Source: an uncultured Bacilli bacterium (lineage in GTDB: Bacteria > Bacillota_I > Bacilli_A > RF39 > UBA660). Taken from it: a stretch of 44,328 nucleotides of DNA. Below are positions 434 to 37,190 of the stretch, in pieces. The position numbers were made by a program, and so were the translations under genes. The notes beneath the pieces are model-generated. The model had not been told where the DNA came from, did not search any database, and was given only the letters and a program-made list of their open reading frames with translations. How positions within the stretch are numbered: the stretch's first letter is position 1; every line of letters begins with the position of its first letter. The stretch spans positions 1 through 44,328 of the forward strand of contig CANRQF010000003.1 in NCBI GenBank assembly GCA_947632715.1. The letters run 5' to 3'.

Positions 434-1351
434 TTAACTTGCTATAAACTCTGCTAAGTTTTCAATTGCTTGTTTTTTTAATTCAAAAGATGGATGAACA
501 TATAATTTTAAAGTTATTTCAATAGATGAATGTCCTAGTATTTCACTAAGTGTTTTAATATCCATTTTAGCCTCAATTGCTCTTGTAGCAAAGGTATGTC
601 TTAGCGTATGGAAATTAATATAATTAAGATTGCATTTTTTAATTACGCCACGATAAAATTCTTCAAAATATCTAGGATCATATAACTTATTACTACCTGA
701 TAATAAATAATAATCATTATCTTTAACTAATACTTTTAAATATTCCATAATAAACTTTGGAACTGGTACTGTTCTTTTAGATGTGTCACTTTTAGGAGTA
801 CTAGCAATTAATGTTGTTCTTGTTTTACCATTACTTTTATTTTTTATTCTAGCAATAGTTCTTTTAACTTCTAAAGAATTATTATAAAAATCAATATCTT
901 CCCATTTTAAACCACATACTTCACCTATTCTAAGTCCTGTATACATACACAAAAGTAAACATATTTTTCTAATATTAATATTAGTTTTTAAATAATTTAC
1001 TAAAATATTTTGTTCATCTTTAGAAAATATATAAATAGTTTTTAAATTATTTTTGACTTTTAAATCATTTAAATTAATATAATCTATATAATGTTCTTCA
1101 CAAGCAAATTTAGTGCTAGCTTTAATAATATAAATAATAGTTTTAATAACAGATAAAGATAAATTACTATCTTTATATTCATTAATAGTCTTGATAATTA
1201 TTTCTTTATTTAATTCATTTAAATATAAATTTCCTAAATAATTATTGATATATTTACTTATTATACCTTCATATCTAAGTTGTGATTGAATCTTAATATC
1301 TCCTTTTTGTTTTAACCATAACTTTAAAATATCTTTATATTTATAGGCCAT
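434..1351 (-). CDS. tyrosine recombinase/integrase (phage/ICE integrase family)
   Basis: TGLRIGE (R), PKS (K), FHTLRHT (HxxR), LGH, LYVH (Y) all intact; start moved to MAYKYKD behind SD GGGGTGA. Confidence 0.9.
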   Translation of the reverse strand: MAYKYKDILKLWLKQKGDIKIQSQLRYEGIISKYINNYLGNLYLNELNKEIIIKTINEYKDSNLSLSVIKTIIYIIKASTKFACEEHYIDYINLNDLKVKNNLKTIYIFSKDEQNILVNYLKTNINIRKICLLLCMYTGLRIGEVCGLKWEDIDFYNNSLEVKRTIARIKNKSNGKTRTTLIASTPKSDTSKRTVPVPKFIMEYLKVLVKDNDYYLLSGSNKLYDPRYFEEFYRGVIKKCNLNYINFHTLRHTFATRAIEAKMDIKTLSEILGHSSIEITLKLYVHPSFELKKQAIENLAEFIAS

Positions 1352-1401
1352 TATCTCACCCCCTGAAATGTATATTTTAGTACACATTTTAAAACAATAC
1401 A

Positions 1402-1425
1402 AAAAAAGTAGAAAAATTCTACTTT
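1402..1425. terminator. hairpin AAAGTAGAA-AAA-TTCTACTTT, likely terminator of spoVID-ysxE
   Basis: 9-bp inverted repeat with a T-tract on the minus strand. Confidence 0.55.
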
Positions 1426-1469: not shown

Positions 1470-1643
1470 ATGGTAAGAAGACCTAATCCAACTTTTTATA
1501 TCTTTTGTGCAATTGGTTTATGTATATTAATATTCTATCAATTAATTATAACTTTTATTTTACCATTTCGTTATAATATTTTTATCTTAACCGTTGAAAT
1601 TATTCTCTTATTCTTCTGTATCAGCCGCATAATATGGTTTTAA
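1470..1643 (+). CDS. 57-aa membrane protein, YszA-like
   Basis: MVRRPNPTFYIFCAIGLCILIFYQLIITFILPFRYNIFILTVEIILLFFCISRIIWF; SD AGGTGA; convergent with and overlapping the ysxE 3' end, the position of B. subtilis yszA; below the ORF-track cutoff. Confidence 0.6.
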   Translation: MVRRPNPTFYIFCAIGLCILIFYQLIITFILPFRYNIFILTVEIILLFFCISRIIWF

Positions 1644-2507
1644 AAATAGTTCTGTCTTATAGACATAATCTAAATCTTTACGCATATTTTTACAAATAGT
1701 AAATTCATCACCTTCAAATTTAATTTCTGGTACTAATGATATTAATACAAAAAACAATTTTTCTTCTTCTATAGATAAGTTATTAATCATTTTATATTTT
1801 TCATAAATAGTACTAAATTCTAATTCCCAAAAATTATGCTGATACAATTTATATAAATCTAAGATGGGTGTATCAAACTTAGCTTTATCCCAACTTATTA
1901 AATAATCTTTATCACTTCTTAAATAATGGTCTAAACTTAAATTATTATGAATGAGAGATATTCTTTCATTCTTTTTTTCTTTAACCATACTATACCAGTT
2001 ATCAAGTTCTCTTTCGGTAAACTCTAAAGCAGCTTTTAATTTCGAATAATTTCTTAAAAATTCATATTCTGATGGTGAATTATAAATATTTTTTAAATAA
2101 AGTTCATAATATTTTAAATAATAATCTTTTAAATATAATATATTATTTTTAATATCTTCATATATTTCTTTAAAAGTTTCTTCTGATACTTCTTTACTAT
2201 ATGATGTTTTAGAGTGAAGTAATGCTACAACGGAAATTAAATCTTCACTCTTAGATGGATTTATTACTTCATTATCTTCTACATACTCATATATATAAGT
2301 ATCATCTCGACTAGTATTATATATTTCGGGAAAATAATTAAAATTTCGGGATTTTAAATAATTAAAAATACTAATCAAATCTTTATTTTTAGGTTTATCT
2401 TTTACAACAAAATTACCACTTGTAGTTTCTAATATAGTACACTTACCTCTTATTGTATAACGATAAGGTTTATATAAAGATTTTAAAGTTTCTAATCTAT
2501 TCATCAC
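1608..2507 (-). CDS. ysxE: spore coat protein YsxE/CotS family (kinase-like fold)
   Basis: LHSKT, LIHNNLSLDHYL, ISWDKAKFDTPILDL motifs; directly after a spoVID-like gene. Confidence 0.75.
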   Translation of the reverse strand: MMNRLETLKSLYKPYRYTIRGKCTILETTSGNFVVKDKPKNKDLISIFNYLKSRNFNYFPEIYNTSRDDTYIYEYVEDNEVINPSKSEDLISVVALLHSKTSYSKEVSEETFKEIYEDIKNNILYLKDYYLKYYELYLKNIYNSPSEYEFLRNYSKLKAALEFTERELDNWYSMVKEKKNERISLIHNNLSLDHYLRSDKDYLISWDKAKFDTPILDLYKLYQHNFWELEFSTIYEKYKMINNLSIEEEKLFFVLISLVPEIKFEGDEFTICKNMRKDLDYVYKTELFLKPYYAADTEE

Positions 2508-3315
2508 CTAGAGGAATTAATACTTTATCACCAACATTTAAAGCATCTATATTATTGTATTCATTAATTAAAGATACAGGTACTTTATACAGTGTACTTA
2601 TTGATTCAAAAGTTTCATTTTCTTTAACAATATGGATATGATATGTAACAAAGGTATCATCTTCATTTTTAATAGTATCCATTATTGTTTTTTCATCCTC
2701 ACTATCTAATCTTTCTTTAATTATTTCTTCGGTAACTGATTCTTTTACTTCTTCATTAATATCTTTTACTTTTTCATCTATTTTTTCTTCTTCAACCATT
2801 TGTTCTTCCTTTCTATCTTCTTCCACCACATCTTTAACTTCTTTATCATTTTCATCCTCACTTTCTTTTTCTTCCGCACTTACATCTACTTCTGTATCCG
2901 TTATGGCATCATCCATAAAAGCTAAATCACTATTCATCTCTTCATCATCTACTCGCTCAAATAATTCATCATTACTATCATCAATTAAATCTTCTAAAAC
3001 ATCACCAGATAAAGAGTATTCAATATTAATTTTTAATTTAGTATTATCTACAATATCATAAGAAAAATCTTCAATATTAAAATCTACTGATTCTCTATCG
3101 ATATCACTTCTAAGTTCTACTGTAAAAGGTAAAGTATACTTAAATTCTTCAGTATTAACACTTAATTCATGACTTTTATATTCACCACTTATATAAAAAT
3201 TACCAAGAACTACTCCATCATTGACATTATAATCATGTTCTAAAGACATTTTAGTTATTTCACGAATATTACTTTTAAAATCGATTTCACTTTCAAAGGG
3301 TATTTTTATAAACAT
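2497..3315 (-). CDS. spoVID: SpoVID-like coat morphogenetic protein (N-terminal domain, acidic linker, C-terminal LysM)
   Basis: C-terminal LysM HIVKENETFESISTLYKV...NVGDKVLIP; E/D-rich linker; SD AGGAG before MFIKIPF; synteny with ysxE. Confidence 0.75.
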   Translation of the reverse strand: MFIKIPFESEIDFKSNIREITKMSLEHDYNVNDGVVLGNFYISGEYKSHELSVNTEEFKYTLPFTVELRSDIDRESVDFNIEDFSYDIVDNTKLKINIEYSLSGDVLEDLIDDSNDELFERVDDEEMNSDLAFMDDAITDTEVDVSAEEKESEDENDKEVKDVVEEDRKEEQMVEEEKIDEKVKDINEEVKESVTEEIIKERLDSEDEKTIMDTIKNEDDTFVTYHIHIVKENETFESISTLYKVPVSLINEYNNIDALNVGDKVLIPLGDE

Positions 3316-3369
3316 ATTATCATCTCCTAAAAAATAATATGTCATAAAAAAAATAATATAACTAAGATA

Positions 3370-33182: not shown

Positions 33183-33530
33183 TTAATCTTTTGCTTTAAA
33201 TATGAGAGTAAAAACAAAAGAAAAGACAACTACACTTACAATAGCAATACCTGATGAACACAACATATTAGAAAATAATCCTAATATACCACTTTCTTCA
33301 TAACCAGCAAGCCCTGCTGAATACAACATATGACCAAAATTTGCAATTAAAACGGTAGCACCGGCACCAAAACAAGCAACAATTTTATCATATATTCCGA
33401 AAAATGAAAGTATTGCGCCGATAACTGTTACACTACTTGTAATATGTCCTGGAGTAAGTGTTGTATTATCAAGTACTACCTGGCAAATAAGACAAACAAG
33501 TCCGGAAAAAATGAATGCCTGTAAATACAT
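33183..33530 (-). CDS. spoVAE: stage V sporulation protein AE (SpoVAEb)
   Basis: AF..SGLVCLICQ, LTPGHI, GAGATV...FG. Confidence 0.88.
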   Translation of the reverse strand: MYLQAFIFSGLVCLICQVVLDNTTLTPGHITSSVTVIGAILSFFGIYDKIVACFGAGATVLIANFGHMLYSAGLAGYEESGILGLFSNMLCSSGIAIVSVVVFSFVFTLIFKAKD

Positions 33531-34504
33531 TATAAAACCTCCAAACTAACTGCATGAGCAATCGCAGGAATAGGACTTTTTTGATTTACAAATGTTTTGC
33601 TATGTAAAGCACCAGTTCCAATAATTAATATTTTTTTATATTTCTTTTGCGTAAGTATTTTATTAAAAAGAACCAGTGGTAAACAAGCAGGTCCACTTCC
33701 ACCAGAATAAGTTTCTTGACTTTTTAGATATAATTCACATCCTGCATCCATATGATTTTTAATTTTCAAGTTATATTCTAAAAGTGCAAATTCTTTAAAT
33801 ATACTTCCACCAACACATCCTAAATCACCAGTTAATATTAAATCGTAATAATCAACATCTCTTTTCATATCTATTAAATGCTCATTTAAAGTTCTTGCAG
33901 CAGCGGGAGCCATTACTGCTCCTAAATTATTAGCATCTTTAATTCCCATTTCTGTAACTTTACCAATTGTGGCTGATTCTATTTTTATTTTACCAGTTGT
34001 TTTCGATAAAAGTGTACTAATACCTGCTGTTGAAGTAAATGTCGATGTATGAGGTTTCGGAGTTCCATATTCAATCGGATATCTAAATTGTCTTTCCGCA
34101 CTTAAATTATGAGAGCTTGTTACACCTAAAACCGTCTTTATATTACGATCACTTAGGAAAGTACTACCCACAATTAATGATTCAGGAAAAGTTGCACAAG
34201 CACTATATATACCTAAAAGAGAGATGGGCATATTAACACTTGCATAACTTGTGGCAGAGATTTGATCTAGTAAATCACCACCTACAAGTAAATCAATATC
34301 ATTTGGTTTTAACTTATTCTTTTCCAAAATTTTTTGCATAACTACCCTTTGCATTTTAGCTTCCGCTTTTTCAAATGTTTTTTCACCATAATAATAATCT
34401 TTCATTTGTAAATCTACTTTTTTTAATTTACTATTACTTTCAAGTGGTCCTGATATAGTTAACCAATCATTTAAATAAACATTATTATATTTGATACTAG
34501 CCAT
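33530..34504 (-). CDS. spoVAD: stage V sporulation protein AD
   Basis: GGDLLDQ, SSHN.SAERQFRYP.EYG, MAPAA, TGDLG, GGSG.AC. Confidence 0.93.
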   Translation of the reverse strand: MASIKYNNVYLNDWLTISGPLESNSKLKKVDLQMKDYYYGEKTFEKAEAKMQRVVMQKILEKNKLKPNDIDLLVGGDLLDQISATSYASVNMPISLLGIYSACATFPESLIVGSTFLSDRNIKTVLGVTSSHNLSAERQFRYPIEYGTPKPHTSTFTSTAGISTLLSKTTGKIKIESATIGKVTEMGIKDANNLGAVMAPAAARTLNEHLIDMKRDVDYYDLILTGDLGCVGGSIFKEFALLEYNLKIKNHMDAGCELYLKSQETYSGGSGPACLPLVLFNKILTQKKYKKILIIGTGALHSKTFVNQKSPIPAIAHAVSLEVL

Positions 34505-34934
34505 ATAACATCACCTTTATAAGTATTAAAATAAAAGCACTAACTATACCATATAAAATAACTGATCCAGCTAATTTGAATACATTAGCACCTATTCCGG
34601 TTACTAAACCATCCCTTTTATAATCTAGGGCTGCACTTTGGACACTATGCGCAAATCCCGTTGTAGGAATTATAAGACCACATTTTGCTTTTTGAACCCA
34701 GTTATCAAATTTACCAATTGCAGTTATAAAAGTAGCAAATAAAATTAAAATAAAAGCTAACCAAGCATAAGAGTCTACTCTTGCAAGGCCAAATGATTCC
34801 ATTAATATATTGACTATTACTTCACCAAGAAAGCCAACTGAACCACCAACTAAAAAAGCAACAAGAGCATTTCTTAATTTAGGTTCTTTGGGACTTAGAC
34901 TTTTAACCAATTTTTGATATTCATCTTTGTTCAT
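34497..34934 (-). CDS. spoVAC: stage V sporulation protein AC
   Basis: AFLVGG, PTTGFA, FKLAGSVILYG. Confidence 0.92.
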   Translation of the reverse strand: MNKDEYQKLVKSLSPKEPKLRNALVAFLVGGSVGFLGEVIVNILMESFGLARVDSYAWLAFILILFATFITAIGKFDNWVQKAKCGLIIPTTGFAHSVQSAALDYKRDGLVTGIGANVFKLAGSVILYGIVSAFILILIKVMLYG

Positions 34935-34948
34935 TAAATCACCATTTT

Positions 34949-34978
34949 TATTATGAATTCAATTGGTTTATTTTATAC
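34949..34978 (-). promoter_or_regulatory. sigma-G-type promoter for spoVA
   Basis: GTATA-18-CATAATA matches the B. subtilis sigma-G consensus GHATR-18-CATAHTA. Confidence 0.65.
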
Positions 34979-35617
34979 TTATAAAGTTAAATATTTACGC
35001 ATTTTCGATATTCCTTTCTTCTCATATCTGGAAACCATTACTTGAGTCATATTAAGTTTTTTAGCTACTTCACTTTGCGTTAAATCTTCAAAATATCTTG
35101 ATTTTATAATATTCTTTTCATCTTCATCTAAAACGCTCATTCCTTCATCAATTAGAATTTTTGTATCATAATCTTCTTCCATACCAAGTGTTTCATAAAA
35201 ACTTTTTTCATCATCTTCCTTAATATCTAAAGACATTATGACATTAGCAGAATTACAAGCCATATTTATATCATCTAAACTTATATTTAAAAATTCTGAT
35301 AATTCATAGTTACTAGGTATTTTATTTAATTTTTGGGCTAAAATATATCTAGTTTCTTCTATTTTTTTATATAATTTTAAAATGTCTTTACTTATTTTAA
35401 TGTTTCTATTACTGGCAAGATTGTACATTTCACCAAAAATATAATCATATGCATAAGTTGAAAATTTAGTATTACTATTCTTATCATAATTTTCTAAAGC
35501 TTTTAAAAGTCCAACTACTCCAGCTTGATATAAGTCATTTTTATCAACACCATAAAAGTGGCTGGCTATCTTTCAAATCATTTTTTCATGACTTTGCATG
35601 ATATTATCATTATTTAT
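34979..35617 (-). pseudogene. sigF: SigF-like sporulation sigma factor with in-frame TGA (35575-35573); pseudogene or recoded
   Basis: Frame extends upstream of the track ORF: MQSHEKMI*KIASHFYGVDKNDLYQAGVVGLLKALENYD...FSTYAYDYIFGEM (region 2); region 4 TQSEVAKKLNMTQVMVSRYE. Confidence 0.8.
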
Positions 35618-35620
35618 TTT

Positions 35621-35926
35621 TCATCTCTCCTTTAAATAATCTTTAATATGAAGTCTTTTTAATTTTCCAAATATTTGTTTATTAACTTTGTTTAAGTATA
35701 CAATTCCCTTATAACGATCAATAAGCCATTTGGTTTTAAGAATTGAATCTAAACCATCTTCATCGATACTTTTTAATTTATCTAAATTGTAAATTACTTC
35801 TTTAATTTGATGTTTTTCTAAGATTGGTATTAAATAATTATATATTTTATAAGTAGTATTTTTATTTAAATTACCAACTAAGTTTATAAAAAGTATGCCT
35901 TCTTTATATTCCAATTCCATATCCAT
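35621..35926 (-). CDS. spoIIAA: STAS-domain anti-anti-sigma factor, SpoIIAA-like
   Basis: ILFINLVGNL, NLDKLKSIDEDGL; dacF-spoIIA synteny. Confidence 0.75.
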   Translation of the reverse strand: MDMELEYKEGILFINLVGNLNKNTTYKIYNYLIPILEKHQIKEVIYNLDKLKSIDEDGLDSILKTKWLIDRYKGIVYLNKVNKQIFGKLKRLHIKDYLKER

Positions 35927-36013
35927 ATAGTCCTCGCTACTTATACTGCACTTTTAATATAATACTTATTTTTTTTAATTTAAACACTTCCGACAAATGA
36001 TAGCAAAACAAGA

Positions 36014-36037
36014 CAAAAAAGAACATTTCTGTTCTTT
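36014..36037 (-). terminator. terminator after dacF
   Basis: AAAAGAACA-TTTC-TGTTCTTTT. Confidence 0.65.
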
Positions 36038-36038
36038 T

Positions 36039-37190
36039 CTATAAAATCTTTTTACCCATTAACATGATATCTAAATTGCGTTTAAAATAATCCCAAAGAT
36101 TAGCTTTTTTTATATCTTCACTAATTGTTATACCAATGGTACTAATTAAATTACCTTCGTTATCTATTACTTCTGCTTCTCCTACTTTATCACCTTTTTT
36201 AAGTGGTGCAACTAACTTTTTTATTTTAACATTTATGGTATAGTTTTTAGCTTTATCATTGATTCCTAATATTTCAGTTGCATCATTCATTAGAATTATT
36301 TTAACACTCTCTTTTTTACCTTTTTCTACTCTTACTTCATCTACTACTTTATCTTTTTCAAATATAGTAGATAATTTATATGAATTAAAGCCATAATTTA
36401 ATAATTTAACTGTATCACTTGTTCTATTATTAGTAGAATCTACTCCCATGACTACTGAAATAAGACGCATATCATTTTTCTTAGCAGTTGCTGTTAAACA
36501 ATAACCTGCTGTTTCGGTAAAGCCTGTTTTAAGACCATCTACATCATTATAAAATCGTACTAATTTATTAGTGTTTACTAACCATGTATTTGAGCCATCT
36601 GGTCTTTGCAAATAATCTTCATATATACTTGTATAATTTAAAATATCTGGATATTTTGTTATTAGTTCTTTGGAAATTAAAGCCATATCTCTTGCACTAC
36701 TTACATGTCCTTCAGCATCAAGTCCATGAGGATTTACAAAATGGGTATTTGTACAACCAAGACTTGCACATTTATTATTCATCATTTCTACAAATCCTTC
36801 GGTCGTACCACCAACTTTTTCAGCCATGGCCACAACGGCATCATTTGCACTAGCAATAGCAATCGATTTAATAAGTTCTCTTACTTTATATTCTTCTCCG
36901 GTATTTAAGTAAACTTGACTTCCACCCATTCCACTAGCATTAGCACTTATTAATACTTTATCATCTAAACTCAAATTGCCATTATCTATCGCTTCCATTA
37001 TTAAAAGTAAACTCATTATCTTGGTCATACTAGCTGGAGCTCTTTTAACATCCGCTTCCTTTTCATATAACACTTTACCAGTAGATACTTCCATTAATAT
37101 AGCAGATTCACTATACTCAGTAACATCAACAGCATATACTCTTCCTATACATAAAAAGAAAAAACTAAATATCAATATTATCTTCTTCAA
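36039..37190 (-). CDS. dacF: D-alanyl-D-alanine carboxypeptidase DacF
   Basis: ASMTK (SxxK), SAN, KTG; upstream of spoIIA. Confidence 0.9.
   Translation of the reverse strand: MKKIILIFSFFFLCIGRVYAVDVTEYSESAILMEVSTGKVLYEKEADVKRAPASMTKIMSLLLIMEAIDNGNLSLDDKVLISANASGMGGSQVYLNTGEEYKVRELIKSIAIASANDAVVAMAEKVGGTTEGFVEMMNNKCASLGCTNTHFVNPHGLDAEGHVSSARDMALISKELITKYPDILNYTSIYEDYLQRPDGSNTWLVNTNKLVRFYNDVDGLKTGFTETAGYCLTATAKKNDMRLISVVMGVDSTNNRTSDTVKLLNYGFNSYKLSTIFEKDKVVDEVRVEKGKKESVKIILMNDATEILGINDKAKNYTINVKIKKLVAPLKKGDKVGEAEVIDNEGNLISTIGITISEDIKKANLWDYFKRNLDIMLMGKKIL

Follow-up and report, generated by a model that had tools for sequence, protein, structure and literature searches.

How is σF controlled in a bacterial lineage that keeps most of a sporulation programme but has neither the kinase SpoIIAB nor the phosphatase SpoIIE? 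The question is raised by a 44,328-nucleotide (nt) stretch of DNA from an uncultured Bacilli bacterium (assembly GCA_947632715.1, contig CANRQF010000003.1; the whole stretch is referred to below as the window), where a spoIIA-like operon is located between positions 33183 and 37190. The partner switching of SpoIIAA, SpoIIAB and SpoIIE has been regarded as a core element common to all endospore formers. The bacterium belongs to an order which we take to be RF39, and its genome (G000, referred to below as the source genome) is a 1.23-Mb assembly of 92 contigs with a GC content of 24.6% and a completeness of 88.7%, the window being its contig C3. We describe here the sigF gene of this operon, which contains an in-frame TGA, and the SpoIIAA-like STAS protein encoded in front of it, and we discuss how the two may bear on the supply of σF.

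The sigF-like gene (34979..35599) lies on the minus strand, as does every gene between 33183 and 37190 and every feature of the locus given below. It comprises 206 codons and a stop, with one TGA inside (35573..35575). In translation table 11, the open reading frame (ORF) that begins at the first available ATG, GTG or TTG encodes only 149 amino acids (aa) and is devoid of σ region 2. The frame measured from stop to stop is 197 aa long and is preceded by ATG-CAA-AGT-CAT-GAA-AAA-ATG-ATT-TGA; when the TGA is read as Trp, a complete σ factor with regions 2, 3 and 4 is obtained. The best family match of the product is SigB/F/G, and its score with the sigF model TIGR02885 is 132.6 bits, under the cut-off of 321.45.

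A sigF orthologue was found in 315 of 401 genomes of the order and in all 42 genomes of the genus, four of which carry the TGA and 38 of which have none. The carriers are the source genome, G006 (99% identity), G004 (86%) and G017 (76%). The TGA occupies the identical codon in the four species. TGG stands at this position in every other locus of the genus that was aligned (L009-L024, L030 and others), which marks the position as an ancestral Trp codon. The four species cluster together with a support of 1.0 in a tree of SpoVAC and SpoVAD, which was built without sigF, and of 0.993 in the σ factor tree. Invariant sequence around the TGA in the group is limited to ca. 8 nt on each side. A special stop context was considered for this codon and rejected, as A also follows 47% of ordinary TGA stops. 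A survey of internal stops in sigF across the order, made among the matches listed (150 of 316), also returned a single TAA or TAG in four genomes of another genus; in the three loci that were read (L188, L189 and L191, with L190 as the fourth), it is the natural stop of the gene. One TAG recorded in the sigG-like gene of G006 is likewise that gene's own stop.

The sigF frame behind the TGA is under strong purifying selection, and the gene is not a pseudogene. Within the TGA group, the pairwise ratio of nonsynonymous to synonymous substitution rates (dN/dS) of sigF was 0.02-0.14 at dS values of 0.11-1.0, and comparable pairs outside the group yielded 0.08-0.24. For the 48 codons that extend from the TGA to the first ATG and are unreachable from any ATG, GTG or TTG, dN/dS was 0.05-0.12. 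Three diverged lineages all keep the frame open, with no second stop and no frameshift. In neutral simulations with a divergence of at least 0.2 per lineage, a 197-codon frame remained open in at most 0.4% of cases under the Jukes-Cantor model and in at most 0.02% under an AT-rich model.

The second peculiarity of the locus is what it lacks. Only 21 nt separate the stop codon of the STAS gene (35623-35621) from the ATG of the σ gene (35599), which leaves no space for SpoIIAB of ca. 146 aa. In the source genome, the best match to the SpoIIAB model TIGR01925 scored 28.9 bits and lay inside histidine kinases, no match to HATPase_c_2 exceeded the cut-off, and SpoIIE reached only 5.3 bits. The absence of both proteins is a trait of the whole order and not of a single genome. 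In an order sample of 151 genomes, 150 of which are at least 90% complete, neither SpoIIAB nor SpoIIE was found above cut-off in any genome; the best SpoIIAB score was 50.7 bits, in frames of 317-731 aa. Since these genomes are nearly complete, the incompleteness of the source genome does not explain the missing genes. In a class-wide sample, SpoIIAB exceeded the cut-off in 64 of 301 genomes, with 0 of 34 in the bacterium's own family. Sister families of the same class retain the canonical spoIIAA(DSSG)-spoIIAB-sigF-spoVAC operon. A 0.9-Mb genome from one such family (G030) has the order spoIIAA(FMDSSG)-spoIIAB-sigF(236 aa)-spoVAC, with SpoIIAB at 190 bits, and we therefore conclude that the arrangement seen here was derived from the canonical one by deletion of spoIIAB.

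The gene that stands in the place of spoIIAA (35621..35926) ends with TGA and codes for a SpoIIAA-like STAS protein of 101 aa, which scored 34.4 bits with Pfam STAS (cut-off 22.6) and 34.2 bits with the SpoIIAA model TIGR02886, whose cut-off of 114.75 was not reached. A profile built from 16 proteins of the lineage was aligned without gaps to solved SpoIIAA chains. The lineage motif "sidesG" coincided with "FMDSSG" in both 1AUZ and 1TH8; in 1TID, its counterpart was "FMDASG". The first Ser of the motif is the sole difference between 1TID and 1TH8 (1AUZ is without Met1), and the change in 1TID is presumably Ser58Ala, a substitution introduced to trap the complex with ATP. If so, phospho-Ser58 is the first Ser of D-S-S-G, and its equivalent in the STAS protein of the window would be Glu56 (codon 35759..35761) in the sequence D55-E56-D57-G58. 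Residues were tallied in 77 distinct STAS sequences out of 99 loci. The Ser58 position (SpoIIAA numbering) is occupied by Glu in 58 of them, by Gln in four, Asn in four, Asp in three, Thr in one and other residues in seven; none has Ser. The Asp57 position is Asp in 73 sequences and the Gly60 position is Gly in 75, and at the Ser59 position we found Ser in 38, Ala in 14, Asp in six and other residues in 19. With Glu fixed at the Ser58 site, this protein would not be open to switching by phosphorylation. An AlphaFold2 model of the STAS protein from the window (predicted local distance difference test score of 93.5) places Glu56 at the start of helix 2. Its closest folds are SpoIIAA chains, the best being 1TH8_B with a template modelling (TM) score of 0.82, and retention of the SpoIIAA fold is thus confirmed at the level of the predicted structure.

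These results bear on an earlier note, made from the letters of this DNA, which had read the gene order dacF-spoIIAA-sigF-spoVAC/D/E with no room for spoIIAB and an acidic residue at the phospho-serine of SpoIIAA. Both observations were borne out, and its suggestion, offered without a mechanism, that the lineage controls σF in some other way is supported by the absence of SpoIIAB and SpoIIE and by the lack of Ser58 in the STAS protein. The search of this and related genomes for spoIIAB and spoIIE with hidden Markov models and the STAS alignment, both proposed in the note, gave the counts reported above. The note had named as contrary evidence a genuine spoIIAB together with a spoIIAA that retains the Ser, encoded at another place in the genome. 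Neither was found: SpoIIAB does not rise above the 28.9 bits already given, and each genome with a lineage-type STAS gene has a single copy. The operon stood as described in the note, but its σ ORF is not intact, the TGA at 35575-35573 having gone unmentioned.

The single STAS copy was found in 91 of the 151 sampled genomes, and the gene directly precedes sigF in 99 of 100 loci. A second family of the order has the arrangement STAS(VDEYA)-sigF-spoVAC/D/E. Outside the TGA group, the order has a well-conserved STAS protein, with the stop codon of its gene touching or overlapping the sigF start, and this arrangement would fit a stoichiometric partner of σF. No STAS-σ fusion was detected among the longer proteins searched, which is weak evidence. 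In the source genome, G006 and G004, though not in G017, STAS and sigF share one reading frame, with only two TGA codons to separate them, so that double readthrough would yield a STAS-σ fusion; the shared frame is probably a coincidence. It can also be seen that the STAS-sigF loci of the source genome and G006 have 99% protein identity (dS 0.11) and their SigG proteins only 92%, which hints that the sigF locus has recently recombined between these two species.

On balance, we favor the view that this is a derived spoIIA operon, belonging to an order that has lost SpoIIAB and SpoIIE, in which low-level readthrough of UGA as Trp throttles σF synthesis. Most ribosomes that start at the sigF ATG would terminate at the UGA, and a few percent would read it as Trp by means of the near-cognate tRNA-Trp(CCA), giving the ancestral protein. 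Readthrough would thereby serve as a translational throttle keeping σF scarce in a lineage that is unable to hold it inactive by SpoIIAB, the expected outcome being a strongly lowered yield of an otherwise ancestral σF. The STAS protein may still act on σF, possibly directly. Readthrough of UGA as Trp has been put at ca. 6% in Bacillus subtilis (PMC6316719, where Lovett 1991 is cited for it). In the TGA group, the STAS protein has changed as well: the last ca. 10-15 residues of most relatives are missing, two Cys residues have been lost, one of them invariant in the 39 other sequences of the alignment and one conserved in many of them, and Asp is present at the Ser59 position. That the fastest divergence and the C-terminal loss of the STAS protein occur in the same four species suggests that the STAS and sigF changes are linked.

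Several points weigh against readthrough as a throttle. Both the readthrough and the identity of the inserted residue are what we infer from sequence. Neither the +4 base nor downstream structure distinguishes the sigF TGA from real stops. The dN/dS values of the STAS gene in the group (0.17-0.59) overlap the range found outside it (0.10-0.53), and the linked change of STAS and sigF would go back to one evolutionary event. A suppressor tRNA could lie on a missing contig, as the source genome is 88.7% complete and has 29 tRNAs. All four species also keep, two codons past the TGA, an in-frame ATA at which translation could be reinitiated instead. Finally, we know of no observation of sporulation in this lineage.

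A related and more far-reaching possibility is one that we regard as tentative and less likely than not. After an ancient loss of the SpoIIAB/SpoIIE switch, the order as a whole would control σF by means of a permanently "phospho-like" Glu58 STAS protein that acts on it directly, and the one group with the TGA would have added to this a selected leaky UGA at codon 9-16 of the gene.

Reinitiation seems unlikely to us. It would make the codons in front of the UGA an 8-15-codon leader ORF, with translation restarting at the in-frame ATA and producing σF that is shorter by ca. 10 N-terminal residues. The sequence AAG ATA right behind the TGA is identical in the four species, the peptide encoded in front of the TGA is more variable within the group than among relatives, and σF of the order is already ca. 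20 residues shorter at its N-terminus than that of a canonical relative (213 vs. 236 aa). However, ATA is a very poor start codon, no Shine-Dalgarno-like sequence is present ahead of it, and ATA (Ile) is found at the same position in species without the TGA. Moreover, a good Shine-Dalgarno sequence with an ATG upstream is retained in two of the three lineages.

If the group decoded UGA as Trp generally, either with an unassembled suppressor tRNA bearing a UCA anticodon or in the course of a drift towards table 4, the sigF TGA would be a single visible instance of it. The class does contain table-4 organisms, as indicated by two TGA codons inside the rpoD-like matches of two small genomes. In the source genome, however, TGA is otherwise a normal stop and the code has not changed. 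Among its 798 long ORFs, 87 (11%) stop at TGA; the median in-frame extension past the stop is five codons for TGA, similar to the eight for TAA, and nine for TAG. The same ORFs contain 1849 TGG codons and at most three candidate TGA-for-Trp sites. ARAGORN detected 29 tRNAs in the source genome, with tRNA-Trp(CCA) as the only Trp tRNA and none with a UCA anticodon. Release factor 1 is complete, and release factor 2 (RF2) is represented by a C-terminal fragment at a contig edge; its gene, prfB, was found intact and above cut-off in all five relatives tested (G006, G004, G017, G023 and G022).

The tRNA itself offers the rival some ground. In its anticodon stem, the two uppermost pairs are G.U (source genome, contig C18:1065-1138), which might raise basal UGA reading genus-wide; weakened anticodon stems of tRNA-Trp(CCA) are described as raising UGA reading in PMC13092985. 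A tRNA-Trp mutation specific to the group was considered and rejected, since the 74-nt gene is 100% identical whether or not sigF carries the TGA, both in the four species of the group and in no fewer than 19 further genomes of the genus, and the anticodon was CCA in all six tRNA-Trp loci scanned. We also observed that the last 46 nt of this gene are repeated exactly ca. 1.8 kb downstream (2945-2990), resembling the attachment (att) repeat of a small element inserted at tRNA-Trp.

Other genes joined across a TGA were sought genome-wide. A codon-usage score gave 59 pairs, which were mostly uninformative, and a filter on the distance to a start codon (at least 40 start-less codons) retained 11 of 242 TGA-preceded ORFs vs. 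18 of 749 for TAA. On inspection, only three TGA-interrupted genes of the source genome looked continuous, namely, sigF, an RNA ligase and a Bro-N-like ORF, the last two of which can be taken to favor general recoding. In the RNA ligase (C17:20315-20980, L127), the PF09414 domain spans the TGA (E-value of 4.6e-12), which is located just after the KxDG motif. No stop is present in its orthologue from G006, which is 99% identical, and the ligase TGA is thus a recent nonsense change, in contrast to the conserved TGA of sigF. In the Bro-N-like, DinD-like ORF (C6:3296-3898, L126), the in-frame TGA is at a likely Trp position and the Pfam score of 22.1 bits is under the cut-off; the ORF is probably a mobile-element pseudogene. 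We give general recoding in the group little credence.

That sigF is a pseudogene in a group losing sporulation is strongly disfavored. A TGG to TGA change is an expected mutation at this GC content, the group's STAS protein has been cut short and evolves fast, and sporulation loss is frequent in this part of the tree, as far as the gene-content survey PMC10868615 goes. Against this stand the low dN/dS, the absence of any second stop or frameshift in three lineages and the simulated rarity of an open frame. The rest of the programme is also intact in the source genome. It contains spo0A (213 bits, above cut-off), a spoIIR-like gene (137.5 bits), a spoIIGA-like gene directly 5' of a sigE-like gene, and sigK-like, sigG-type (257 aa) and sigA-type (371 aa) genes, the last two named from their sequences and from weak matches to the sigE model, as well as spoVA. 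The sigG gene is intact in all four TGA species. A further σ-like product of the source genome, a 671-aa protein (C38:8967-10982), has a core resembling σ70 region 2 between long, low-complexity AT-rich flanks, and relatives hold similar long σ-like ORFs of 800-1800 aa.

It is likewise very improbable that equivalents of SpoIIAB and SpoIIE are present in the order, too diverged or non-homologous to be detected, with partner switching intact in principle. The scores of all sporulation proteins of the window, which are under their cut-offs, mark the lineage as fast-evolving, and two weak PP2C-like matches were seen in the order. Yet every HATPase match lies in a frame of 274-731 aa, typical of histidine kinases, and STAS and sigF have no gene between them in 99 of 100 loci. 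A hidden kinase would also be left without its substrate: the phospho-site is never Ser and is Thr in one of 77 sequences, and the neighboring Ser59 is variable too. An assembly or binning error at the TGA can be dismissed, since, even though the source genome is fragmented, the codon is present in four species-level genomes and contigs from three independent other studies span 35573-35575 with no difference listed there.

At the upstream end of the operon is a gene for a dacF-like D-Ala-D-Ala carboxypeptidase of 383 aa (36039..37190), with matches of the PBP3/DacA type (E-values of 1e-57 to 1e-69), none of which reaches an equivalog cut-off. Between this gene and the STAS gene, TTTGTCGGAA (35988..35997), read from the sequence, forms a Spo0A-box-like element upstream of σA-like -35 and -10 elements. 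Most genus relatives have it in the form TTTGTCGAA, and the block recurs in most of 20 loci aligned by eye; judged by the 0A-box consensus, it may function as a Spo0A box. Downstream of sigF, the motif GTATA-N18-CATAATA (34949..34978) precedes spoVAC and recurs in 18 of 20 genus loci, as judged by eye. By its consensus, we take it to be a putative forespore-type (σF/G-like) promoter. It is followed by spoVAC (34497..34934; TIGR02838, 140 bits, cut-off 164), spoVAD (33530..34504; NF006160, 347.7 bits, cut-off 402) and spoVAE (33183..33530; TIGR02839, 98.9 bits, cut-off 131). None of the sporulation proteins of the window reaches its NCBIfam equivalog cut-off, which shows the lineage to be divergent.

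Of the neighboring genes that the earlier note had listed as intact, spoVA and its promoter motif are present, but ysxE is matched only weakly (85.8 bits vs. 263), and the name spoVID given to an ORF of 282 aa has no NCBIfam support. A tyrosine recombinase adjoins the weak ysxE-like gene and the 282-aa ORF in this part of the window (434-1402 and 1608-3345). Elsewhere in the window, the gene for ribosomal protein L20 (12636-13187) encodes 183 aa, including an extension at the C-terminus; the product matches "L20/unknown domain fusion" and "sunset domain variant" models under their cut-offs.

The closest known counterpart of the locus is the spoIIA operon of B. subtilis (spoIIAA-spoIIAB-sigF, with SpoIIE and partner switching). 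The two share the synteny of a dacF-like gene, STAS, sigF and forespore genes, the STAS fold with a DxxG loop at the start of helix 2, and a Spo0A-box-like element upstream. The order differs from B. subtilis in having no SpoIIAB or SpoIIE, in having Glu for phospho-Ser58, and in a σF that is N-terminally shorter by ca. 20 residues; the sigF of the TGA group differs further in its in-frame UGA. G030 has in common with the source genome the order spoIIAA-sigF-spoVAC and a small, AT-rich genome, but, unlike the source genome, it retains SpoIIAB, the DSSG motif and a σF of 236 aa.

For the UGA, three comparisons can be made. The leakage of UGA as Trp in B. subtilis (Lovett et al. 1991, as given in PMC6316719) involves the same near-cognate tRNA-Trp(CCA) in the presence of RF2, at the ca. 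6% mentioned above, but occurs at ordinary stops or mutant codons, whereas here the stop is conserved across species inside an essential developmental gene. The programmed frameshift of prfB resembles sigF in that an early, conserved in-frame UGA sets the yield of a regulator in an RF2-dependent manner (PMC12421855); there, however, the UGA is bypassed by a +1 frameshift with a slippery site and an internal Shine-Dalgarno sequence, while the sigF frame is unchanged past the UGA. The organisms of the Mycoplasmatales that use code 4 belong to the same class and also have AT-rich, reduced genomes with UGA at Trp positions. Unlike them, the bacterium studied here uses TGA as a regular stop, has RF2, and yielded no tRNA-Trp(UCA) among its 29 tRNAs.

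The loss of SpoIIAB and SpoIIE is already partly in print, probably for this very lineage. In a 2024 gene-content survey of RF39, RFN20 and ML615J-28, spoIIAB and spoIIE are diminished or missing in RF39, and a different regulation is predicted (PMC10868615). That survey is a table of KEGG orthologues which agrees with the losses found here; its main text yielded no mention of spoIIAA or sigF. In a 2022 survey (bioRxiv 10.1101/2022.02.25.481979), these genes are described as highly conserved in all spore-formers. In the limited collection of literature that was searched, neither a sigF gene with an in-frame stop nor a SpoIIAA with Glu58 was found to have been reported, and the selected in-frame UGA in sigF, the fixed Glu58 of the STAS protein and the tight STAS-sigF unit appear to be undescribed there.

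This is an abundant gut order with genomes of ca. 1 Mb, which has kept spo0A, all four sporulation σ factors, spoIIR and spoIIGA, and spoVA, while the kinase and the phosphatase are gone. The order is therefore a natural experiment on the minimal circuit for compartment-specific σF activity. There is also a practical consequence for annotation: automated pipelines would take sigF of the TGA group for a pseudogene or for a shortened ORF of 149 aa, and the genomes may be scored as non-sporulating. Candidates for functional stop-codon readthrough are rare in bacteria with the standard code; the conserved sigF UGA, with purifying selection acting on its gene, is one of them, and it is located in a master regulator. 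If the tentative reading given above holds, σF synthesis would hinge on readthrough, and its dependence on RF2 and Trp-tRNA could tie sporulation to starvation. Readthrough could also produce cell-to-cell heterogeneity, and a developmental σ factor would then be gated by translational recoding.

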